Assembly: GCA_964597545.1 (NCBI GenBank)
Contig: CAZQXN010000003.1
Span: 691 to 64,690, forward strand
Direction of reading: 5' to 3'
DNA from: an uncultured Planctomycetia bacterium
GTDB taxonomy: Bacteria; Omnitrophota; Gorgyraeia; 1-14-0-20-64-10
DNA: 64,000 bases
Shown: piece by piece, positions 1 to 11,643 of the stretch
How the letters are laid out: every line of letters starts with the position of its first letter
Numbering within the stretch: position 1 is the stretch's first letter
Made by a program: the position numbers and the translations under genes
The notes under the pieces: generated by a model
What the model saw: only the letters and a program-made list of their open reading frames with translations
Told to the model about the DNA's origin: nothing
Databases searched by the model: none

Positions 1-417
1 TTCGTTATAAAACAGCTCATCCCGCTTTTGATCTTCCTTGTCCTGTCCGCCTTCCAAGACACAATCCTTATACGCCCACGCTAAGGCAACATCGTTTTTC
101 TCTTTCAAATATTCGCCGTTCGTCATCAAACCAATCTTGTTCTTAAAGCTTGTGAAGGAATCCGGAAGAAACTCTTTGTTGTTCACAAAGGCAATGAACT
201 TATCTTTGTCGAAAACAAGAACATCTTTGCCATTCAGCTTCTTGGCAATAAAGAAATGCTCTTTGGAGGTTTCGTCGGAGATGAGAAGATCGAGCAACTG
301 CTCATCCAGCTTAAACGCTAACTCGGTGAGCTTATTCTTTAACAGATGTCCCTTCTCATCAATAACTCGCTCGTCCTTCTCGAAAATCTTTGTAAGTTCA
401 GTCATTAGATTTTGCAT
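1..417 (-). CDS. mod: Type III restriction-modification Mod (adenine DNA methyltransferase), N-terminal 139 aa only; gene runs off left window edge
   Basis: Reverse-strand translation from ATG at 417 gives MQNLMTELTKIFEKDERVIDEKGHLLKNKLTELAFKLDEQLLDLLISDETSKEHFFIAKKLNGKDVLVFDKDKFIAFVNNKEFLPDSFTSFKNKIGLMTNGEYLKEKNDVALAWAYKDCVLEGGQDKEDQKRDELFYNE. From memory this matches the conserved N-terminal region of Type III Mod (and PglX-like) N6-adenine methylases. It is not in the ORF track because it is truncated by the edge. Confidence 0.6.
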   Translation of the reverse strand, partial: MQNLMTELTKIFEKDERVIDEKGHLLKNKLTELAFKLDEQLLDLLISDETSKEHFFIAKKLNGKDVLVFDKDKFIAFVNNKEFLPDSFTSFKNKIGLMTNGEYLKEKNDVALAWAYKDCVLEGGQDKEDQKRDELFYNE

Positions 418-634
418 ATCGCTTCTTTCCTCTCAAGAATTTCTCTATGTGATACTGCTGCACTTTTTGGGGCTTCGTTTTACCGTTGAGCCACCGGCTA
501 ACAGTTGAGAAGCTGACTCTCAATTCCCTGGCTAAAACACCCTGGGGAATTCTGTTTCGCAGGCGGTACAACTCCAATTGCTTTATCGTCTTGGAAGGAT
601 TAGACTTAGAGGTAACGGTTTGCATAGGTTGCAT
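398..634 (-). CDS. XRE-family helix-turn-helix transcriptional regulator (controller-like, immediately upstream of mod)
   Basis: 78-aa ORF with an HTH motif (LARELRVSFSTVSRWLNGKTKP). It overlaps the mod start by ~20 nt and is a paralog of ORF 8110..8301. Confidence 0.6.
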   Translation of the reverse strand: MQPMQTVTSKSNPSKTIKQLELYRLRNRIPQGVLARELRVSFSTVSRWLNGKTKPQKVQQYHIEKFLRGKKRYAKSND

Positions 635-671
635 TCTATGTCAGAAAGAAAAACTGGGCAAGACCTAAGAC

Positions 672-1835
672 ATGGCACGACAATACAAGCTGAAACAATT
701 CGTAAGATACTTGGATGATGCTCTGATTGCTGAGTATCTTCAGGCAAAGAGCATCCGGCAGGAATTACCCCCCAAGCATGAGAAGGAAACCCCTGCGGAC
801 TACTGGGAGCGTTTCATCAGGAACCTTCCGCAGGGTGCGGTAAATGTTGTAGAAGTCGGTTTTCAGGAGATCAATGAGCTGGCCGATGAGGGGGGTGTCC
901 TATCCCTGATTCAGATTGGGAGCGATCACGGCGTAGATATAGCGGGCGAGATTAAGGACATCGAGAACCCGTACAATCAAGCTTTCCACTGCTACTTGAA
1001 GCACCCGAAGATATTCGAGGAAGCCGCAACTCTCTATTGGATTGAGGAATTGCGCTCCAAGAAAGAACGGACAGGACTGCGGAGCAAAACCGCTAAAGAG
1101 GTCATGGAACGCAAGGGTGCGTTGGCGGAGGCGTTGCGTGAATACTTCATCACGCATGACGGACGGGGAACGCATTGTCAGATTGACGTTCATTCCTTTC
1201 AAGGTCGGGTTTGCTTCGTAGCGTATCCTGAAGACTACGCCAAATCGGATTTCCATTACGAAGGAGAGCAACTCAGGCGTGCCAGCAGAAGGCCTTGTTT
1301 TGAGGTGGTGTTTATTTACTACCCCAATACCGGGCGTCTTGAACTCTGGGCCAAGGGAGGCAAAGATCGGGAAAAAGAACTTTTGGATATTTTCAATCAC
1401 CAGGTCTTGGAAGATAAGAACCCCTTAGACCCCTCGCAAAAGGTGTATGACCTAAACCGGCTCTTTGATGAGAACCTCGTGCTGGCTCCGCAGCTTGAGG
1501 ATCAGATTGAAGATATTCGGGTCAAACAAATGCGGTTTGATTTCAAGTTTGGGGGCAGGCAACGGATCACGCTGGAAATGGATCAGGAAGGGGGCCTGAA
1601 GCCGATGCAGGAACTGATGAAAAAGAAAGGCATCAGTGCCGAGTATTTCAACATCACCCAGGCCCGAATCCACATTAAGTTTCCCGGAAAGGGCAAAAAG
1701 GGGAGTGTTACCCTCCAGATCACCGCTCCAGACAAATGCAACCTCAACAGTTCGCCACTCCATCTGAAGGCCGAAAAATACCTGAAGCTCTGGAACCTTG
1801 AAAATACTCCCGTCAGAGAAACGCAAGCTGTTTGA
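672..1835 (+). CDS. hypothetical protein (387 aa), mobile-element cargo
   Basis: Long ORF on the same strand as, and overlapping by 38 nt, the next ORF. I recognise no motifs. Low GC compared with the host region. Confidence 0.5.
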   Translation: MARQYKLKQFVRYLDDALIAEYLQAKSIRQELPPKHEKETPADYWERFIRNLPQGAVNVVEVGFQEINELADEGGVLSLIQIGSDHGVDIAGEIKDIENPYNQAFHCYLKHPKIFEEAATLYWIEELRSKKERTGLRSKTAKEVMERKGALAEALREYFITHDGRGTHCQIDVHSFQGRVCFVAYPEDYAKSDFHYEGEQLRRASRRPCFEVVFIYYPNTGRLELWAKGGKDREKELLDIFNHQVLEDKNPLDPSQKVYDLNRLFDENLVLAPQLEDQIEDIRVKQMRFDFKFGGRQRITLEMDQEGGLKPMQELMKKKGISAEYFNITQARIHIKFPGKGKKGSVTLQITAPDKCNLNSSPLHLKAEKYLKLWNLENTPVRETQAV

Positions 1836-2799
1836 TGCCCTATCCGCCAGCCATCCCCTCAAGTTCTCGGAGGCTGGCCTTGAGGACGACTTCCCCTCTC
1901 TTGCCCCTGTCCTGAAAAAAGCCGGTTTTCTCAGACCGGATCAACCCGGCCTGGAAACCATTTGCCCCGCCCTCCCCAACAATTGCCTTGTAACCGCTCA
2001 CCCATCCAATGGCCGGTATTATGTTCACTGCGAATGCTCGGAAGAAGTGGGGCTGGTACAGATAGACCCCAAAGAGCTTCGCCGCTTCCGTTTTGATCTG
2101 AACTCCTTTATGAACTGGCTTATATCCGCTTCCACTACTGAGTCTGATCTCAAGGAAATCGAATCGGGCAGACTTTGGCGTCTGGGCGAAAAGAGCCTGA
2201 AAGGAGAAACCGCCAAAGTGTATTTCATCAGGTCAAAAGAGGCGGAAGAAAGCGAAGGCCTGCTCAGAAGTCTCCGAAAAGACGAGACTCCTTTGATTCT
2301 CTTTTGGCTTGGCGAAACGCCTCATGGACGGCAATTCCCGCCGAACCTTGTTTCCCTCCCCGAAATTATAAATATCATCGGCAAAGAGTTCACGTTAGAC
2401 CGAAAACCGCTGGAACATCTGCTTGGAAAACGGCTGGTCGCAACGGTTGGCGGTGATCTTGTTCTTGATAGGGACATTGCCTTGCGCAAGGAAGGCGAGA
2501 AGCGCTTCTTGTTGCTCAAACGAGGGCAGAAAAACGCATTTCAGGTTGAAACCCGCATACGGCCTTTAGACTACCGGATCATCAGACATCTTTATCAGAT
2601 TCGTAGGTATCAAAACCGAGCGAGAAGCCTGGCCGAGATGCGAGATAGAGGCCTAGCCGAACACCGGCCCTCAATCTCCAGAAGCATTAAAACGGTAAAC
2701 GAGTTGTGCGAAAAACACGATGTGCCGTCCATTTTCCACAAATTCCCTGAGCAGAAATGGGGGCTCAATCCATCTCTCGACTGCTGTAACGAGCGTTGA
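1798..2799 (+). CDS. hypothetical protein (333 aa), mobile-element cargo
   Basis: Long ORF translationally coupled to 672..1835. Contains Cys/His clusters (HCECSEE). No known domain recognised. Confidence 0.5.
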   Translation: MKILPSEKRKLFDALSASHPLKFSEAGLEDDFPSLAPVLKKAGFLRPDQPGLETICPALPNNCLVTAHPSNGRYYVHCECSEEVGLVQIDPKELRRFRFDLNSFMNWLISASTTESDLKEIESGRLWRLGEKSLKGETAKVYFIRSKEAEESEGLLRSLRKDETPLILFWLGETPHGRQFPPNLVSLPEIINIIGKEFTLDRKPLEHLLGKRLVATVGGDLVLDRDIALRKEGEKRFLLLKRGQKNAFQVETRIRPLDYRIIRHLYQIRRYQNRARSLAEMRDRGLAEHRPSISRSIKTVNELCEKHDVPSIFHKFPEQKWGLNPSLDCCNER

Positions 2800-2971
2800 C
2801 CGAGCCGTTATCAATACTGCTTAGCTAACGCTCCCCATTCCTTCCACCCAGAAAAACTTCCTCTCGTAACCTACTCATCCCCAACGGGATAGAACGGTCA
2901 AAGAATATTTTTCACCATCCTCTTGACCTCCTTCCTCTGTTAACAGCATTCCTATTATGTAAGTCAAAACA

Positions 2972-3226
2972 ATGGGAATGCAGATGAATAACGACGATTT
3001 TCTTAAAACGCACGACCTGAACATCTCCGCCGTACTGGTGGCCTTCGGCCATCCGCTCGATCATATCGAACGCCAAGACAACGGAAGGGTCTTGTTCTGC
3101 TTCAAGGCCTCCCCCGCCGCAAAGAAAACCGCCCAGAGCTACTGGAAGCAGGAAATCAAGATTAACCCACAGAAACTTTTCGACAGTCTCAAGTTTCTGA
3201 AAAACCGCCTTTACAGCGATTTTTGA
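2972..3226 (+). CDS. DUF5659-like small protein (84 aa) typical of plasmid/phage elements
   Basis: Motifs KTHDLNISAVLVA ... GRVLFCF ... NPQKLFDSLKFLKNRLY resemble the DUF5659 family as I remember it. Confidence 0.45.
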   Translation: MGMQMNNDDFLKTHDLNISAVLVAFGHPLDHIERQDNGRVLFCFKASPAAKKTAQSYWKQEIKINPQKLFDSLKFLKNRLYSDF

Positions 3227-3420
3227 TCATGCTGACCAAGCAGGCGGTGGAGGAATTTCGGGAGATTTACCGGCGGCGGTACGGCGTAAGCCTGCCAGAA
3301 GCCAAAGCCTCGGAAATAGCGGCGAATCTCCTGAACCTCTACCGCTCTGTCTATGGGGAGGCCAATATGAAAAGGAATATGGAAAATGAACAACCTGAAA
3401 GAACAGATCAAAAACAGTAA
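3223..3420 (+). CDS. small hypothetical protein (65 aa)
   Basis: ATGA overlap with the upstream ORF and overlaps the primase start; helical composition. Could be a translationally coupled small gene. Confidence 0.3.
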   Translation: MIMLTKQAVEEFREIYRRRYGVSLPEAKASEIAANLLNLYRSVYGEANMKRNMENEQPERTDQKQ

Positions 3421-5983
3421 TCCGATTGCCGAGATCATCCGGGAAAAAGTATCTCTCCGCCAGATCGGAAACCGGCTTATCGGCCTATGCCCCTTCCACG
3501 CCGACCAAAGCAAACCCAACCTGAACGTCTTTCCTGAGACTGAGAGCTTCTTCTGCTTCGCCTGCGGGGCGGGTGGAGATGTTTTCAGCTTCATCATGCG
3601 GGACAGGAATCTGGGCTTCGCTGAAGCCATGCGGCTGCTCGCAGATCGCAAGGGCATCCCTTTCAGGGCAGAAGAATACGATCCCAAAAAGGAGGAGAAA
3701 CGCCTTTCCGCCGAGGCTGCCTTGCGGGAAACCGCCGTCCTGTACCACAAGGCCCTGCCGCCCGAAGTCAGAGAGTATCTTCGGGGCCGGAAGCTCACGG
3801 ATGAAACGATTGACCAATACCTCATCGGCTTTTGTGATGGCAAAACCGATCTCGGCCCACAAAAGGAAACCCTGATGGAAGCCGGTCTGATTTACGAGAA
3901 CGGCAGGCAGTATTTTGAGGGATTCATCACCTTTCCCCACCTTGTCGGGGGCCGTGTCGTCTACATGAGCGGTCGAGGCTGGCCCGAGAAGGCCCATAAA
4001 AAACTGCCAAAGGAGAAAGTCCCGTTGCTCCATCTCTACAACGAAGATGCTCTGAGGCAATCCAATGTCGTTGTAGCGGAGGGAGAGATTGACACCCTTA
4101 CCCTGTTGCAGAACGGCTTCAACGCTTGCGGCATCCTGGGAGCAAACAGCTTCAAGCAGGAATGGTCGGAAAGATTCGCCGGAATCGAGAAAGTCTACGT
4201 CTCTTTCGATGGAGATGAGGCGGGCAGTGAGGGGAACAGAAAAATAGCCGCTTTCATCGGCCCGCAAGCTCACATCGTGAAGCTGCCGGAAGGGGAGGAC
4301 ATCAACGCCTTTTTCCAGTCTAAAACAGCCGACGATTATCAGAAGCTTCTGGGCGATTCCATCAACCTGATCGAGACGAAGATCAAATCCATCCCTTCCG
4401 ACACCTCTCCCCTGGAACTCACCCGCCTGCTCAACCCCATTGTTGAGGAAATAGCGGGTCTGGAGGACACGGCATACGCAGACGCCCTGCTTCAACATTT
4501 CATCAAGGATCATTTCAATCTCAAGGCCAAAGACATCAAAAGCTACGAGAAAGTTCTGAAAGAAACACGCAAGACAAAGCAGTCTGAAGCGGAGCAAGCC
4601 CCGCCCGCTGAGAAGCTGGATCACTCGCAGCTGCTTGAGGTTTTGAAAACCGAAGAAGGAAGTCTGACGATCAATCCCGCTCAGGACTTCCGGGGCGGGA
4701 CATTCTACTTCACCGTGTTCATCAGACAGGCGCCCTATCTGCTGACCTCCAGCAGGCAACTGATAAGTTTCGAGGAGGCCCCCGACAGCGGCGTCATGCT
4801 CCGAAACGAGGACGTAAGCACGGCAAGATTCTCCGCCAAAGGTGTCGCCGGTTTCCTGGAGCAGTCGAACGAGATCGGAATCCCTGAGCTTTACCGGGAC
4901 ATCCACGCCTACATCAAGCGGTACATCTTCCTGGCTGATACCCGTGTCATTTCCTACCTGTCTCTTTGGATCATGGGAACATACCTTTTCTCGATCTTCC
5001 GATACTACCCCTACATCTGGCTGAACGCAGAAAAAGGGAGCGGAAAAACCCTTCTGATGGAGATTCTGGCCGCAGTCGCTTTCAACGGAGAGCTTGTAAC
5101 CAACCCGACCGAAGCCACCCTGTTTCGGGATGTGGCCTGCAACATGACCACCCTTTTCATAGATGAGGTGGAAAACCTTCGCAAGCAAGACAAGGATGCG
5201 GTTGGGGCCGTCATGGCCGTTCTCAATACCGGCTTCTGCAAGTCCGGGAGCGTCAAGCGGATGGAAAAAACGGGCGAAGGCAAATTTGTCCTCAAGGCAT
5301 TTCCGACCTATTCGCCAAAGGCTTTTGCGGGAATCAACGAAATCAACGACGTTTTGCAGGATAGAACCGTCCGCATCCGGCTCTTGAAGAAGCGGGACGA
5401 CGAGATTACCGAACGCTACAAGGGAACGGATGAGGTGGTGCGGCTTCAAGGGGCAATCCGGGACAAGCTCTATACCTTCGCCTTGATCTATGCGAATCAG
5501 ATTGCCCGGCTCTACAACGGGGAAGCCGGAACGATTGACGGAACCGAACACCTCTCAGGCCGGGAACTGGACATCTGGGAGCCGATCATACTTCTTGCCA
5601 ATGTCGTAGACGGCCTATCAGGAACCAGCGATCTGACGGATGCCATGAAGGCTTTGAGCGGCGAAGCCTTCAAGGAAAAGCAGGCCGACAGCGTAGCCCA
5701 GAACGACACCTACCAGCTTCTTACCGTTACACGGGCCATGCTCTCAGAGCTTGCCCCGATGGACACGGACGGGGACACGCTGGTTTTCAGCTCTGAGGCC
5801 GTATTCAAGTATTTCCAGGAAACCGATGAGTTTGGCTGGCTTCAAAGGAAAAACGCCCTGACCATGCGCCTGAAACGCATGGGGGCGCAGTCTGAGCAGC
5901 GGCGGGAAGGTTCTGGGCGAGTCCGGGTCTACGTCATCAATCGAAAGCAGGTGGAGGATTTATGCGAAAGACACAAAATTTGA
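3386..5983 (+). CDS. DNA primase (CHC2 zinc finger + Toprim) fused to a P-loop NTPase/helicase-like C-terminal domain; replication initiator of the element
   Basis: CHC2 Zn finger CPFHADQSKPNLNVFPETESFFCFACGAGGDVFSF; Toprim VVAEGEIDTLTLL...VSFDGDEAG; Walker A AEKGSGKTLLM and Walker B-like LFIDEV in the C-terminal half. Confidence 0.85.
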   Translation: MNNLKEQIKNSNPIAEIIREKVSLRQIGNRLIGLCPFHADQSKPNLNVFPETESFFCFACGAGGDVFSFIMRDRNLGFAEAMRLLADRKGIPFRAEEYDPKKEEKRLSAEAALRETAVLYHKALPPEVREYLRGRKLTDETIDQYLIGFCDGKTDLGPQKETLMEAGLIYENGRQYFEGFITFPHLVGGRVVYMSGRGWPEKAHKKLPKEKVPLLHLYNEDALRQSNVVVAEGEIDTLTLLQNGFNACGILGANSFKQEWSERFAGIEKVYVSFDGDEAGSEGNRKIAAFIGPQAHIVKLPEGEDINAFFQSKTADDYQKLLGDSINLIETKIKSIPSDTSPLELTRLLNPIVEEIAGLEDTAYADALLQHFIKDHFNLKAKDIKSYEKVLKETRKTKQSEAEQAPPAEKLDHSQLLEVLKTEEGSLTINPAQDFRGGTFYFTVFIRQAPYLLTSSRQLISFEEAPDSGVMLRNEDVSTARFSAKGVAGFLEQSNEIGIPELYRDIHAYIKRYIFLADTRVISYLSLWIMGTYLFSIFRYYPYIWLNAEKGSGKTLLMEILAAVAFNGELVTNPTEATLFRDVACNMTTLFIDEVENLRKQDKDAVGAVMAVLNTGFCKSGSVKRMEKTGEGKFVLKAFPTYSPKAFAGINEINDVLQDRTVRIRLLKKRDDEITERYKGTDEVVRLQGAIRDKLYTFALIYANQIARLYNGEAGTIDGTEHLSGRELDIWEPIILLANVVDGLSGTSDLTDAMKALSGEAFKEKQADSVAQNDTYQLLTVTRAMLSELAPMDTDGDTLVFSSEAVFKYFQETDEFGWLQRKNALTMRLKRMGAQSEQRREGSGRVRVYVINRKQVEDLCERHKI

Positions 5984-6011
5984 CCGGCCCTTGCCCCCTG
6001 CCCTGCTTTGA

Positions 6012-6170
6012 GGCTTTAAGCCGGATACGCCCAACCCCATGGAAGGACAAGCAGTTACGAGGTCTTAAATGTGGATTGAACTTCAAACAGGTGTTTAAGG
6101 CAGCTTTAAGACACCGTATCCGTAAAACACCATTGGAGATACGGAAAGTCCGCCTCAATGTCTTAAAGAT
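6012..6170. promoter_or_regulatory. putative replication origin / iteron region downstream of primase
   Basis: Five copies of CTT(T/A)AAG within 160 bp (ctttaagcc, cttaaatg, tttaagg, ctttaagac, cttaaag). Nested inverted repeats: CTTTAAGACA...TGTCTTAAAG flank CCGTATC...GATACGG. Confidence 0.3.
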
Positions 6171-6188
6171 TCGGAGGGGTATGTAGAG

Positions 6189-6467
6189 ATGGAAAATTTG
6201 CTCGATGCAGTAAAAACCCTGAAGGCCAAGCGGCAGGAAACCAGCCAGCCGTCCCTGGAAACGCTCAAGGCGGCGTACAACGACCTGATCCGACGGCAGA
6301 AGGCAATGGAAGCGTATCTGGATGACAACTCCATCCCGCTTGAGACACGGGAAGGCAAGCTGGACGAGTTTAAGAGCGTTCTACGCCGATTGAATCAACT
6401 GCTGTCCGAAATCCGGGGGATGGGATGCGCCATCACGGACAAGGAGATTTTGAACGGTTTCACATAG
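6189..6467 (+). CDS. hypothetical protein (92 aa)
   Basis: ORF with coiled-coil-like composition, in the element between the primase and downstream hypotheticals. Confidence 0.4.
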   Translation: MENLLDAVKTLKAKRQETSQPSLETLKAAYNDLIRRQKAMEAYLDDNSIPLETREGKLDEFKSVLRRLNQLLSEIRGMGCAITDKEILNGFT

Positions 6468-6539
6468 GAACTGGGTTCACAAAACCCTGTTGATTTAGGA
6501 ATAAACGGACGGGAAGTAAACCTGACAGGAGGATCAAAC

Positions 6540-7400
6540 ATGACAACCGAAAAACAGAGTACGGCCAACCAGCAGAACGCCCAGAAGTCTACCGGCCCGA
6601 AAACGGAAGCAGGCAAGGCCGTATCCAAGCTCAACGCAGCCAAGCACGGTATTTTAAGCGATGCGGTGGTTATCACCAGGGGGGAGGGGCAGGAGCGCAA
6701 GGAGGCCTATTTGCGGCTCTACGACGGCCTGAGAGGCTATTTCAAGCCCTCTGGAGCGATGGAGGAAGCTCTGGTGGAACAAATCACCGTTACCCTGTGG
6801 CGCAAGCGGCGTGTGCTTCGGTTTGAGCTTGGCTGTCTACGCAAACAGCTTGATACCTACCAGCAGGAGGCCAAAGGGGACGAAGATGAGGACTCCTCCT
6901 ACGAAAAACCCAAAACTGCCTACCAAAAGCTGGCGGCAACCCAGGGTCGTTTGGCTCACCATCGGCAGGAGAGAAAGTACCTGCAAGAGGGCTACGACAT
7001 CATGTCGGATGAGGAGGTGGAAAACTGGACGGACAGCTATTTCCGGCTGGCGGAGAAGAAGGATTTCGAGGCGGATGAGCCTTTGGAGGTGAGGAACTGG
7101 CTCAAGGAACAGGGCCTCTCAGAGGAACAAATCCGCAAGGAGATGATCGAAGTTCACGATGAGGTCATCCGCAACATTCAGGCGGAAATCAAGGAGCTGG
7201 AGCCCCAGGCGACCCTGGAGCTTGAGCGGGCGGCCCTGCTTGGCTCCGTGCCTGCTTTCGGCCCTGATCTGGACAAGATCATCCGATACGAGGCTTCTCT
7301 TGACCGCCAGCTTTACAAAGCGGTAAACCAGCTTGAACGGCTCCAGCGGAGCCGGGAGGGGGAAACCCTGCCCCCGCCGGTGGTGCTGGATGCGACCTGA
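6540..7400 (+). CDS. hypothetical protein (286 aa)
   Basis: ORF preceded by a GGAGG RBS (gacaggaggatcaaacATG). Upstream carries the shared TTGATTTAGGAA motif. Confidence 0.5.
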   Translation: MTTEKQSTANQQNAQKSTGPKTEAGKAVSKLNAAKHGILSDAVVITRGEGQERKEAYLRLYDGLRGYFKPSGAMEEALVEQITVTLWRKRRVLRFELGCLRKQLDTYQQEAKGDEDEDSSYEKPKTAYQKLAATQGRLAHHRQERKYLQEGYDIMSDEEVENWTDSYFRLAEKKDFEADEPLEVRNWLKEQGLSEEQIRKEMIEVHDEVIRNIQAEIKELEPQATLELERAALLGSVPAFGPDLDKIIRYEASLDRQLYKAVNQLERLQRSREGETLPPPVVLDAT

Positions 7401-8109: not shown

Positions 8110-8301
8110 ATGCCTGATGATCTCATGGATCAACTCAACACCTATCGGCTGGAAAACAAGCTTACCCAGACCCAACTGGCGGAGAAGCTTGAGGTGACTT
8201 TCCAGACCGTCAACCGCTGGCTGAATCGCCGGATGAGGCCCAGACCCATTCAGGAGTATCAGATCAAGAAGCTGATCTCCGGCAAGCTGAGGGGGAAATA
8301 A
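8110..8301 (+). CDS. XRE-family HTH transcriptional regulator (paralog of 398..634)
   Basis: LTQTQLAEKLEVTFQTVNRWLNRRMRP aligns to the regulator at 398..634 at roughly 50% identity. Confidence 0.6.
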   Translation: MPDDLMDQLNTYRLENKLTQTQLAEKLEVTFQTVNRWLNRRMRPRPIQEYQIKKLISGKLRGK

Positions 8302-8302
8302 C

Positions 8303-8707
8303 ATGGCCTTTAGGTCAGGTGGTTATACACTACTGAACAAAGACAAGGTTCCTCCGGCATGGATTAAGCTCTTTGAGCAAGCATGGGAACGACTTCATAA
8401 TTTCGACGATCTCCACAACAAACAATGCACGGTTGTATTCGCCATTGGAGGAAAGCTCGTTGTTGATTTGGTGATTAAAGAGCGTATTGCCGAATATTGG
8501 AGAGACCTGATCGTCTATAACGTCGAAAAGATGCAGGGCAAAACCAACAAAGAACTTGAGGTCATTTTCCTGGAAGAGCTTGTCCACTGTTTCTTCGATT
8601 CGCTTGACGAAACCGCTGTTTCCCTCTTGGTTGCTTCCCAAATTCCCGGAATCAGCTTCGACCTCAAGACGAGGCAGTATGTAACTCAAACTGGTGGCTC
8701 GAAATGA
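8303..8707 (+). CDS. hypothetical protein (134 aa) upstream of and overlapping the recombinase start
   Basis: ORF sharing ATGA with the recombinase start, so an operon with the HTH and recombinase is likely. Confidence 0.45.
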   Translation: MAFRSGGYTLLNKDKVPPAWIKLFEQAWERLHNFDDLHNKQCTVVFAIGGKLVVDLVIKERIAEYWRDLIVYNVEKMQGKTNKELEVIFLEELVHCFFDSLDETAVSLLVASQIPGISFDLKTRQYVTQTGGSK

Positions 8708-10374
8708 AATTGCCTGAGAACCGCTTCGGGAAACCGGCTGGATTGAAGTACTTCGTCTACGCCCGGAAATCTTCCGAAAGCGAAGATAAGCAGGTGGCCT
8801 CAATCGCTTCCCAAATTGACGAACTCAAGACCGTCGCCAGGCGGGAAGGTCTGAAAATCGTCGAAACCTTCACGGAGGAAAAGTCCGCCAAGGCCCCCGG
8901 TCGGCCCGTCTTTACCCGCATGATCGAGCGTATCCATTCCGGCGAGGCCCAGGGAATCATCTGCTGGAAGCTGGACAGATTGGCCCGAAACCCCATTGAC
9001 GGCGGGACGATCAGCTGGATGCTCCAGCAAGGGGCCATCCAACACATTCAGACGTATCAGAGAAGCTACCTCCCTACCGATAACGTCCTGATGATGAGCG
9101 TTGAGTTTGGCTCTGCTAATCAGTTCATCCTCGATCTGAGCCTGAACACCAAGCGGGGTATCCGTCGAAAAGTCCAAGAGGGCTGGCTGCCTCACAAACC
9201 CCCCATCGGCTATTTGAACAACAAATACAGCGATCCGAACAAACCTCCGATCTACAAAGATCCCGAAAGATTCGATCTGATCAAGAAGATGTGGGGCGTT
9301 CTACTCCAACAACAGCATTCCCTTATGCAGATGAAGCAACTGGCGGATGATTGGGGCTTGAGGTCAACCAACGGCAAGAAGCTGTACCGAAGCAAAATCT
9401 ACGACATTTTCACCAACCCCTTTTACTACGGTGTCATCCGATGGGAAGGCGAAATCTACCCTGCCAAGCATGAGCCGATGATTACCCAAGCGGAGTTTGA
9501 ACAAGCACAGAAAATCCTCTCAGGCAGGTATAACGCAAAACCGCATTACAGAAGTTTTGCCTTCACCGGCCTGATGCGCTGCGGAGAGTGCGGAGCCGGT
9601 ATCACGGCAGAAGCCAAGACGAAGATTCAGAAAAACGGCAACGTCCACCACTACACCTACTACCGATGCTCAAAGGCCATAGACCCGCATTGCTCCCAAA
9701 AGACCCTGCGGGAGGAACGGCTGGAAGAACAAATCCTCGACACCCTGGGGCAGATCACGATACCGGCGGAGTTTCACCAGTGGGCGATCAAACACCTGAA
9801 AGAGGAACAGGCCAACGAGATCGAAGATCGGGAGAAAATATCAAAATCTCAGCAAACCACCCTGGATTCCTGCAAAAGACGGTTGGATGCCCTGCTCTCT
9901 CTGCGCTTGAATGACGAGATTGACGCCCAGGAATTTAAGCGGGCCAAAGCAGAACTGATCTCAGAGAAGAACCGTCTTGAGGAATTGATTGGGGACGCCA
10001 ACTACCGGATGGAGACCTGGCTGGACAGGGCGGAAAAGACCCTGGCGTTTGCCGAGACAGCCAAGGAGCGGTTTGAAGCGGGCGATTTGGAAGCCAAGAA
10101 GGAGATTCTTGCCTGCCTGGGGTCGAACCTGATTTTGAGGAATAGAACCCTTTCCCTCCGACTGAATCCCCCTCTGGAAATGGTGAGCCAGGTCGCACCG
10201 GAGGTACAGGCCCTTCATGAAAGCTTAGAACCTACGCAAGTGCCTGCCACACAAGAAGATTGGGAGGCTCTTTACGCCCAAAATGAGAAATGGGGTGGCC
10301 GAGGTGATGCTGATCGGACCCGGTACATTGATGGTGACGCTATGCACCTTATCATCGGTTTGAGCCATAGCTGA
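8704..10374 (+). CDS. large serine recombinase (resolvase/invertase catalytic domain + recombinase domain + zinc ribbon + coiled coil); element integrase
   Basis: N-terminus FVYARKSSESEDKQ...IICWKLDRLARN is a resolvase-type catalytic domain. Zinc ribbon CGECGAGITAE...YYRCS. 556 aa. Confidence 0.85.
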   Translation: MKLPENRFGKPAGLKYFVYARKSSESEDKQVASIASQIDELKTVARREGLKIVETFTEEKSAKAPGRPVFTRMIERIHSGEAQGIICWKLDRLARNPIDGGTISWMLQQGAIQHIQTYQRSYLPTDNVLMMSVEFGSANQFILDLSLNTKRGIRRKVQEGWLPHKPPIGYLNNKYSDPNKPPIYKDPERFDLIKKMWGVLLQQQHSLMQMKQLADDWGLRSTNGKKLYRSKIYDIFTNPFYYGVIRWEGEIYPAKHEPMITQAEFEQAQKILSGRYNAKPHYRSFAFTGLMRCGECGAGITAEAKTKIQKNGNVHHYTYYRCSKAIDPHCSQKTLREERLEEQILDTLGQITIPAEFHQWAIKHLKEEQANEIEDREKISKSQQTTLDSCKRRLDALLSLRLNDEIDAQEFKRAKAELISEKNRLEELIGDANYRMETWLDRAEKTLAFAETAKERFEAGDLEAKKEILACLGSNLILRNRTLSLRLNPPLEMVSQVAPEVQALHESLEPTQVPATQEDWEALYAQNEKWGGRGDADRTRYIDGDAMHLIIGLSHS

Positions 10375-10425
10375 AACTGCAGCCACCAACATAACAGCCA
10401 CAGACAGCGCAATTAACTTTTTCAT
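10225..10425 (-). pseudogene. 5' fragment (signal peptide + ~25 aa) of a paralog of secreted protein 11077..11643; truncated, overlaps recombinase 3' end on the opposite strand
   Basis: MKKLIALSVAVMLVAAVSAMAQTDDKVHSVTINVPGPISITSAT aligns with LALAGVAAADTDQATHSVSISVPKAPLSITDDTG of the downstream gene. Similarity stops after about 45 aa. Confidence 0.5.
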
Positions 10426-10724: not shown

Positions 10725-10822
10725 GATTATGGCGTTCGGTAACCGGGCTACCATTATCAGGTCCCTCAGTTTTGCGTCCCTGGGTTTCCCCAGGTTTGCC
10801 TTTATCGCTCACCCAATTGTCA
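10725..10822. repeat. direct repeat copy A (~100 bp) containing hairpin CCTGGGTTTCCCCAGG
   Basis: Core tttgcgtccctgggtttccccaggtttgcctttatcgctcacccaattgtca matches 12193..12243 with a few substitutions. Weaker similarity extends ~50 bp further upstream. Confidence 0.7.
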
Positions 10823-11076: not shown

Positions 11077-11643
11077 TTAGCTGTCTTTCAGTGTAACGGT
11101 AAGGTGGGCGGGATGAGCCCCGGCTGCCAGGTCCTGCTCTGCCTCTGCCCGCCAAGAGACAGTCAGGGTGCCGTTCAAAACCCTGGCCTGGTTACCGGTA
11201 GTTACTCCCTTGTCTGCCAAGGGGGTTAACTCATCCTCGATCTCCAGAAATCCCCCTCCAGACTCAATTAAGATGATGTTGCCGGCACTGCCCTCATTGG
11301 TAAAGCTGCCCACATCGGCTTGAACCTCTATATCCTCAAGCTCAGAACCAAGGCTTGCCGAGACCACCCCTTCCAGGGAGCTGGTTGGCAGACCATTGCC
11401 CTTGAGGCGGTAATTGACGACTTGGGTATTGGTCAGGGCGCCTTCAATGGGATCTTCAAAGGTGAGCGTAAAGTCGCCGGTATCATCAGTGATAGAGAGG
11501 GGGGCCTTAGGCACTGAAATGGAGACAGAGTGGGTCGCTTGATCGGTATCGGCAGCTGCCACCCCGGCCAAAGCCAAAAGCAGGCTTAAGGCCAGAGTGG
11601 CCTGCCTTCTTACCCCACCCATCCATCTGGAGGCTTGTTTCAT
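11077..11643 (-). CDS. secreted hypothetical protein (188 aa, signal peptide, Thr/Ser/Gly-rich beta-type composition)
   Basis: Signal peptide LALSLLLALAGVAAA, followed by its own terminator. A paralog fragment lies at 10225..10425. Confidence 0.6.
   Translation of the reverse strand: MKQASRWMGGVRRQATLALSLLLALAGVAAADTDQATHSVSISVPKAPLSITDDTGDFTLTFEDPIEGALTNTQVVNYRLKGNGLPTSSLEGVVSASLGSELEDIEVQADVGSFTNEGSAGNIILIESGGGFLEIEDELTPLADKGVTTGNQARVLNGTLTVSWRAEAEQDLAAGAHPAHLTVTLKDS

Follow-up and report, generated by a model that had tools for sequence, protein, structure and literature searches.

A strictly paired, uncharacterised gene couple in integrating mobile elements and its possible place at a lambda-type genetic switch

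What is the role of two overlapping genes that belong to no known family and stand between a regulatory gene and the primase gene of an integrating mobile element? The question arises from a stretch of 64,000 nucleotides (nt) from an uncultured bacterium of the Omnitrophota (assembly GCA_964597545.1, contig CAZQXN010000003.1, positions 691 to 64,690 of the forward strand). The whole stretch is referred to here as the window and is numbered from its first letter. The genes, named A and B, are arranged as follows, with lengths in amino acids (aa) from the list of open reading frames (ORFs).

672-1835, + strand: gene A, ATG start, 387 aa
1798-2799, + strand: gene B, TTG start, 333 aa
1798-1835, + strand: 38-nt overlap of the end of A with the start of B, a translationally coupled arrangement

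A preliminary description, made from the letters of the window alone, had presented the pair as candidate defence or anti-defence cargo. The explanation preferred here, at slightly less than an even chance, is that A and B, conserved and translated together, are a DNA-binding pair of the immunity (lysogeny-control) region and would gate the early operon there. The elements that host the pair are a family of integrating elements and prophages, most of them with a large serine recombinase.

Both A and B are genuine genes, with homologues (28-79% identity for A and 48-66% for B) and usable AlphaFold models (pLDDT 86 and 77, respectively). The ORF coordinates confirm the two co-directional frames of 387 and 333 aa and their 38-nt overlap, as first described. 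The TTG at 1798 is the first canonical in-frame start of B past the upstream stop, and the next is Met104. Because residues 1-100 of B are conserved among the aligned homologues although the next start is Met104, the overlap is considered real. It measures 29-38 nt in relatives of the close clade and 4-70 nt in most relatives; the largest overlaps (~70 nt) occur in distant clades, and a 3-nt gap is found in one.

The failure to match any motif by eye was reproduced by database searches, and the pair is supported as unannotated, translationally coupled and outside known families. Neither protein has a match in Pfam or NCBIfam, in the defence and candidate-defence models of PADLOC-DB v2 (E<=0.1), or among PDB sequences by single-sequence and profile search. 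Eighteen A homologues gave nothing consistent against Pfam at E<=10, and none matched RdgC (PF04381); 65 relatives of B likewise gave nothing consistent against Pfam or PHROGs. The sole family match is that of A, over its full length, to phrog_37634 of PHROGs (function unknown; E 1.5e-23). A word-indexed search of 5.8 billion proteins returned 20 relatives of A and ~10 of B, and a full hidden Markov model (HMM) scan expanded the B family to 219 representatives at E<=1e-3. Three A proteins, from the window and two distant viral sources, were compared by tblastn with 50,697 phage records, with no match, and with 72,556 plasmids, with a single weak match from one query only. Pattern scans of GTDB and metagenomes added no further loci. 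The literature searched on DUF5659, a domain encoded just after B, and on RdgC-like proteins in mobile elements yielded nothing.

The strongest property of the pair is its constancy. The relatives comprise 28 non-redundant loci, cited below by L numbers where they must be told apart: the window, 10 loci from metagenomes or metagenome-assembled genomes, 16 IMG/VR contigs and one plasmid. A gene of the B family directly follows A in 28 of the 28. The pairing persists down to 25-30% identity; B-family membership in distant loci was judged with HMMs built in this analysis. Relatives of A at 25-41% identity are found on 17 IMG/VR contigs (16 of them non-redundant), on plasmid CP013100 (L027) and on several metagenome contigs. 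The B gene is split in L004.

The neighbours of the pair in the window, on which the question of backbone or cargo depends, are listed below.

1-405, - strand: N-terminus of a site-specific DNA methyltransferase, in an ORF cut by the window edge; cargo (type III Mod)
398-634, - strand: Cro/CI-type helix-turn-helix (HTH) gene, 78 aa, divergent from A (HTH_3, E 7e-6)
2972-3226, + strand: DUF5659 gene, the first gene of the downstream early operon
3223-3420, + strand: orf65 (65 aa), downstream early operon
3386-5983, + strand: DnaG-type primase with Toprim and DUF3631 domains (Pfam), downstream early operon
8704-10374: large serine recombinase, 556 aa (Pfam); 525-545 aa in relatives

The setting between a methylase with its HTH gene and a primase was correctly recognised from the letters of the window, but its interpretation as a site of cargo does not hold for the pair. 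In close relatives the order A, B, DUF5659, orf65, primase, ORFs of 92, 286 and 183 aa and then the serine recombinase is fixed. Identities to the window are 67-79% for A, 59-66% for B, 80-83% for DUF5659, 73-80% for the primase and 81-84% for the recombinase. Because A and B keep a fixed order with DUF5659, orf65, primase and recombinase at backbone-like identities, they are backbone genes in this family of integrating mobile elements and prophages, not swappable cargo. The smaller mini-elements L001 and L010 contain A, B, DUF5659, orf65, a tyrosine-recombinase-like gene and a serine recombinase, and no primase.

What does vary is the restriction-modification (R-M) block to the left of the HTH gene: L005 and L006 carry a type II EcoO109I system there, and the window, L007 and L008 have type III Mod/Res. 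The 78-aa HTH is 51-76% identical in L005-L008 despite this difference in cargo. This conservation rules out the earlier view of the HTH as the controller of one R-M system; it is instead taken as a regulator of the backbone, behind which cargo has been inserted. In the window the stop of the HTH gene overlaps the methyltransferase start by 8 nt.

Cargo occupies recurrent slots in these elements. One lies under the backbone HTH, with overlapping stop and start codons, in the window (1-634, - strand), L005 (8019-9948), L007 (365-4869) and L008 (4922-8814). A second variable slot lies between the 183-aa ORF and the serine recombinase (window 8110-8707, L006 10446-11363, L007 13783-14703). It holds a 63-aa HTH and a 134-aa ORF in the window, and a 305-306-aa SLFN_AlbA_2 protein after the HTH in L006 and L007. 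Directly after B, variable genes of atypically low GC content at third codon positions (GC3) are present in L017 (4969-6969, SIR2_2), L016 (5153-5836) and L018 (6496-7212), and an operon of Multi_ubiq, Prok-JAB and ThiF in plasmid L027 (10746-13193). The slot directly after B looks like a defence-cargo hotspot beside the module.

The position of the pair relative to regulatory genes is also recurrent. The gene immediately upstream of A encodes a repressor with a LexA-like winged HTH and a Peptidase_S24 domain in L015-L018, and an ImmA/IrrE-type Peptidase_M78 in L020 and L026. These S24 and M78 genes run in the same direction as A, at gaps of 12-27 nt; in the window clade the upstream gene is the divergent Cro/CI-type HTH. 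The genes that follow B are early genes of varied kinds: a primase in the window clade; a DUF3799 exonuclease, AAA_24, DUF669 and a helicase in L016; a PD-(D/E)xK nuclease and a RecD2-like helicase in L024; and AAA_24, DUF669, RecD2 and an ERCC4-primase-MCM protein in L004. In the annotated lambda record the order is cI (S24), rexA, rexB, then OL3-OL1/PL and the early left operon.

A promoter-like sequence on the minus strand of the window (633-661: TTGCCC, 17 nt, TAGAAT) stops a single base short of the HTH start codon. As a consensus match only, it would give a leaderless or near-leaderless HTH transcript, like that of lambda cI from PRM.

A link with integration was considered for the pair, in which A and/or B would bind the large serine recombinase and switch it to excision, as a recombination directionality factor or accessory. 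A large serine recombinase lies within the fetched 7-10 kb flanks in 18 of the 28 loci, and the recombinase-bearing loci span at least five clades with different recombinase subfamilies. Such breadth would suit a partner of these enzymes. The known directionality factors of large serine recombinases are diverse in fold and are often moonlighting DNA-replication proteins (PMC12286644; bioRxiv 10.1101/2024.08.21.608926). However, those factors are single proteins, the small conserved ORFs orf65 and DUF5659 are equally good candidates, and expression alongside the repressor would drive constant excision. Because the pair also occurs where only tyrosine integrases are found instead of a serine recombinase (L004 and plasmid L027), a dedicated directionality factor is disfavoured and is judged very improbable.

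The DNA directly downstream of B holds repeats with the appearance of operators. Two features were located in the window.

2795-2829, no strand: distal operator-like cluster of three degenerate GTTAAC sites, spaced 12 and 17 bp
2937-2946, + strand: perfect 10-bp palindrome CTGTTAACAG, the proximal site (2923-2958 in full), just upstream of DUF5659

The distal sites are GTTGAC (2795-2800, overlapping the stop codon of B), GTTATC (2807-2812) and GCTAAC (2824-2829). Alignment of the spacers shows perfect GTTAAC in relatives at the same positions and with equal spacing. Six loci share a conserved spacer of 170 nt between B and DUF5659, with three GTTAAC palindromes from the B stop codon and a fourth ~115 bp beyond these, between a TTGAC(A/C) hexamer and the DUF5659 start. 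In the window CTGTTAACAG is flanked by the conserved hexamer TTGAC(C/A) at 2923-2928 and by TATTAT at 2953-2958. The early operon may have its regulated promoter at 2923-2958, an assignment that is uncertain because the 24-nt spacing of the hexamers is non-canonical. An Rfam scan of the stretch between B and DUF5659 found no known RNA. The motif is almost absent elsewhere: in L001 all three sites in 21 kb fall within 150 bp here, and in L010 all four in 8.4 kb are placed here.

Other clades have different repeats in the same place. Two copies of CCGTGGAATTTTCCACGG, 107 bp apart, follow B in L021-25, and two of GGTrATTTCTGACC, 121 bp apart, lie in L016-18 beyond the variable low-GC3 cargo gene (a SIR2 protein in L017). 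B is followed by two copies of GCCACAn5TGTGGC in L020, two of GTGAAATCGACAA in L026, and four direct repeats of TTCACACC in the plasmid. Whole-locus scans in four clades (L016-L018, L021-L026) found the full motifs nowhere else, except for one degenerate match in L026; the motifs of L020 and the plasmid are too short for this uniqueness test. No genes other than A and B adjoin the arrays in all of the clades. Downstream of its array the plasmid has Multi_ubiq, JAB and ThiF genes and no regulator, and in the mini-elements the sites are kept and the HTH is gone.

Repeat arrays beside a gene for a putative DNA-binding protein also bring replication initiation to mind. B would then be an iteron-binding initiator, with the array and an A/T-rich stretch downstream as the origin, and A a DNA-remodelling or loading cofactor. 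The A/T-rich tract is present in the window clade, the four direct TTCACACC repeats lie in a plasmid (CP013100) that has no replicon type in PLSDB, and the downstream modules (primase-DUF3631; AAA_24, DUF669 and helicase; ERCC4-primase-MCM) are without an obvious initiator. Rep proteins carry multiple winged helices, as B is predicted to do. However, no Rep family was matched in the searches with A and B, a cargo gene separates B from the repeats in L016-L018, and mini-elements that lack replication genes retain A, B and the sites. The pair is also co-directional with the S24 and M78 genes, 12-27 nt away, and an initiator so placed would fire in the integrated state. Because of this co-transcription with the repressor, a replication initiator is disfavoured and regarded as improbable.

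Protein A consists of an acidic helical N-terminal domain (residues 1-126, pI 4.9) and, in its AlphaFold model (pLDDT 86, pTM 0.79), a basic alpha/beta domain resembling RdgC and RexA (residues 127-375, pI 9.1). Its most strongly conserved motifs are R165-G166..C169, P186-E187-D188-Y and F210-E211. When the model was compared with the PDB by Foldseek, the matches to RdgC (2owl/2owy) had probabilities of 0.98-0.99 over 320-349 columns, with TM-scores of only 0.33-0.45; CENP-N/L, Iml3 and the NRD domain of RnlA were the other top fold matches. Against BFVD the matches were phage 'RdgC/exonuclease' proteins at probabilities of 0.97-1.0. Comparison of the A profile by hhalign gave no sequence signal with E. 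coli RdgC (probability 0.26) or with lambda RexA (probability 0.1), and the top 50 Foldseek matches do not include RexA. It has been reported from the crystal structure of lambda RexA that its structural relatives are RdgC, Iml3 and Chl4, and that the protein binds DNA non-specifically and modulates the CI/Cro switch (PMC11077077).

A defence function of the Rex type can be derived from this fold. A would sense invading or replicating DNA, and B would be a soluble effector that replaces the membrane protein RexB and blocks the invader or the cell through DNA binding, both being expressed with the repressor from the integrated element. The predicted RdgC/RexA fold of A is consistent with such exclusion, and so is the place of the pair within a repressor operon in several clades, as for rexAB. 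The pair adjoins defence cargo (R-M, SIR2, DruA/HATPase and a ubiquitin-like operon), and the RexA homologues of actinophages, at 337-372 aa, are similar to A in size (PMC11077077). Several findings argue in the other direction. The similarity of A to RexA does not extend to the hhalign comparison or to the top 50 Foldseek matches, and B is soluble in its model, not a RexB-like protein of four transmembrane segments. The Rex system is among the models of PADLOC, where neither A nor B has a match. Because neither protein shows the signature of a nuclease, NADase or pore-type effector and inheritance is backbone-like, a vertical conservation atypical of shuffled defence cargo, Rex-like exclusion is disfavoured and is considered unlikely.

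Protein B is modelled as a soluble alpha/beta protein with winged helices. A winged helix at ~residues 1-55 is followed by a Cys4 zinc ribbon (C56, C63, C78, C80), an alpha-beta-beta-beta-alpha-beta domain (residues 101-190) and a basic winged helix of the OmpR/PhoB kind (residues 221-325, pI ~10), the last with a four-strand sheet, helices and a hairpin wing. The string YYVHCECSEE had been singled out from the letters of the window as a small Cys/His cluster. Its cysteines C78 and C80 do form part of the Cys4 zinc-ribbon-like motif, and are invariant within the close family of B, whereas His77 is not conserved. Over 75 members of the B family C56 and C78 are near-universal, and most members have an extra Cys at the position of residue 59, where the window clade uses C63 instead. 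Foldseek matched the C-terminal domain to 1kgs (probability 0.95, TMt 0.36) and to the PhoP DNA-binding domain (TMt 0.56 over 110 columns), and Pfam gave no match of this domain to the OmpR/PhoB family (PF00486).

Conservation across the 75 members is limited to the cysteines, W127-x-L-G130 and hydrophobic core positions. Positions 100-215 contain no conserved catalytic residue among the aligned members, the best being E120 (63% acidic) and R145 (62% basic). Because the B family has no conserved catalytic residues, the pair looks non-enzymatic and DNA-binding. Weak Foldseek matches of B to the nucleases Bax1, MspJI and EndoMS were also obtained; a PD-(D/E)xK nuclease at residues 101-190 was ruled out, as the catalytic acidic and lysine residues are not conserved in the 75 members.

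Fusions occur among the relatives of B. In a few distant ones (representatives P0083 and P0084) the C-terminal winged helix is fused to far longer proteins, and in one the C-terminal domain is fused to a reverse transcriptase (RVT_1, E 1e-12).

From these features a mechanism can be proposed for the preferred explanation, a DNA-binding pair at a genetic switch. B would be the sequence-specific component, with its basic C-terminal winged helix aided by the N-terminal winged helix and the zinc ribbon. Its targets would be the clade-specific repeats, both those just past the B stop codon and those ~100 bp farther along, where the next operon begins. Such binding would gate early-operon transcription, from DUF5659, orf65 and the primase through to the recombinase. 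A, with its predicted RdgC/RexA fold, is probably a dimer that encircles or coats DNA. It would serve as a co-factor or sensor alongside B that stabilises the switch or flips it, the part that RexA plays at the CI/Cro switch of lambda. This explanation is preferred because the pairing is strict and backbone-like, with variable cargo on both sides, and because a repressor or HTH gene lies upstream of A in an order like that of lambda cI-rexA-rexB-OL. It is further favoured because A resembles RdgC in two structure libraries (PDB and BFVD) while B has winged helices and no conserved catalytic residues, and because the repeats lie directly after B, where A and B are the only constant genes.

A number of observations weigh against this explanation. 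The three distal GTTAAC sites of the window are degenerate, and a sigma-70 scan found no canonical + strand promoter at 2923-2958. The palindromes after B in some distant clades (e.g. L035) may be ordinary terminators. The repeats could also be targets of a repressor (S24, M78-partner or HTH), which is the case for OL in lambda, or of the protein encoded first downstream, such as DUF5659. TM-scores of the fold matches are low for both proteins (RdgC 0.33-0.45; OmpR/PhoP 0.36-0.56), with hhalign probabilities of 0.1-0.3, and the C-terminal domain of B is not recognisably conserved in every clade. The conserved acidic cluster of A (E187, D188 and E211) could signal an enzymatic role.

A wider statement of the case is possible, if doubtful. 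In it, A and B are a widespread two-protein module of temperate elements, made up of a RexA/RdgC-fold sensor and a soluble zinc-ribbon/winged-helix effector. The module would be either a new component of a quiescence/induction switch acting on paired operators or a Rex-type exclusion system free of a membrane partner. Little is understood of the immunity regions of temperate elements beyond the model phages, and what RexA-fold proteins do is a matter of continuing debate, lambda included. The pair provides a second system, independent of lambda, in which the action of RdgC/RexA-fold proteins at a genetic switch can be studied, and candidate operator sequences are now available for testing. The two cargo slots after the HTH gene and after B, which receive R-M, SIR2 and ubiquitin-like genes, are useful for mining defence genes in serine-recombinase elements.

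Further observations concern the elements themselves. The mini-elements, which have no primase, are ~6 kb in size (L001 13209-15955, L010 4151-6948, L011 6846-10517) and pair a tyrosine-recombinase-like protein of 368-370 aa, with a weak Phage_integrase match in L001 and L010, with the serine recombinase. The combination may be likened to that in SPbeta, where the recombinase-fold repressor YopR stands beside SprA. To the left of the R-M cargo, L005 contains a second, unrelated serine recombinase with a DUF2924 gene before it (5025-7075), and L008 has another recombinase with a LexA-like repressor (2041-4885); these extra recombinases suggest that elements lie in tandem or are nested.

The right end of the element in the window is near 10300, within a host gene. 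A 66-aa ORF at 10225-10425 (- strand), with a signal peptide and '...TDDKVHSVTINVPGPISIT', is paralogous to the N-terminus of a 188-aa protein at 11077-11643 (- strand) and continues antisense into the recombinase gene. At 556 aa the recombinase ORF of the window is longer than those of relatives (525-545 aa), and it apparently extends through the element junction. A c-di-GMP-I-GGC riboswitch at 10734-10809 (- strand; 64 bits, E 1.4e-13) lies just upstream of the interrupted host gene.

Among known systems, the effector domains of OmpR and PhoB (Trans_reg_C) share the predicted topology of B residues 221-325, as seen in the matches to 1kgs and PhoP; unlike these regulators, B has no receiver domain and no Pfam match, and its scores are modest. 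RdgC (PF04381) and the RdgC-like 'exonuclease' proteins of phages are the best structural matches of the C-terminal two thirds of A in the PDB and BFVD. RdgC is a ring-shaped, recombination-associated, DNA-binding protein, and the basic C-terminal part of A is consistent with DNA binding. In contrast to RdgC, A has no Pfam RdgC match, aligns with an hhalign probability of 0.26 and TM-scores of 0.33-0.45, and adds an acidic helical domain of 126 aa and an obligate partner gene.

ImmR/ImmA, CapH/CapP and BrxR/CapW are two-gene regulatory cassettes of mobile elements and defence islands. A and B resemble them as a modular pair upstream of varied operons (replication, SIR2, ubiquitin-like) with repeats between. 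They differ in having no HTH_3, M78 or WYL domains and in adjoining an M78 protease in two clades rather than replacing it.

The closest parallel is with the immunity operon of phage lambda. As in cI-rexA-rexB-OL/PL, an S24 repressor (L015-L018), a protein of predicted RdgC-like fold, a partner gene, an operator-like cluster and early genes follow in that order and in one direction. A is predicted to fall in the RdgC/Iml3/Chl4 fold group reported for RexA (PMC11077077). The location in a repressor operon is found in L015-L018 (S24) and partly in L020 and L026 (M78), whereas the HTH of the window is divergent and has no S24 domain. A has no sequence similarity to RexA. B is modelled as a 333-aa soluble zinc-ribbon/winged-helix protein with no RexB match in PADLOC, while RexB is a small protein with four transmembrane segments. 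The repeat motif lies only downstream of B and not on both sides of the repressor gene. On this comparison the pair, real and uncharacterised, is best regarded as a novel version of the immunity-region layout known from lambda.

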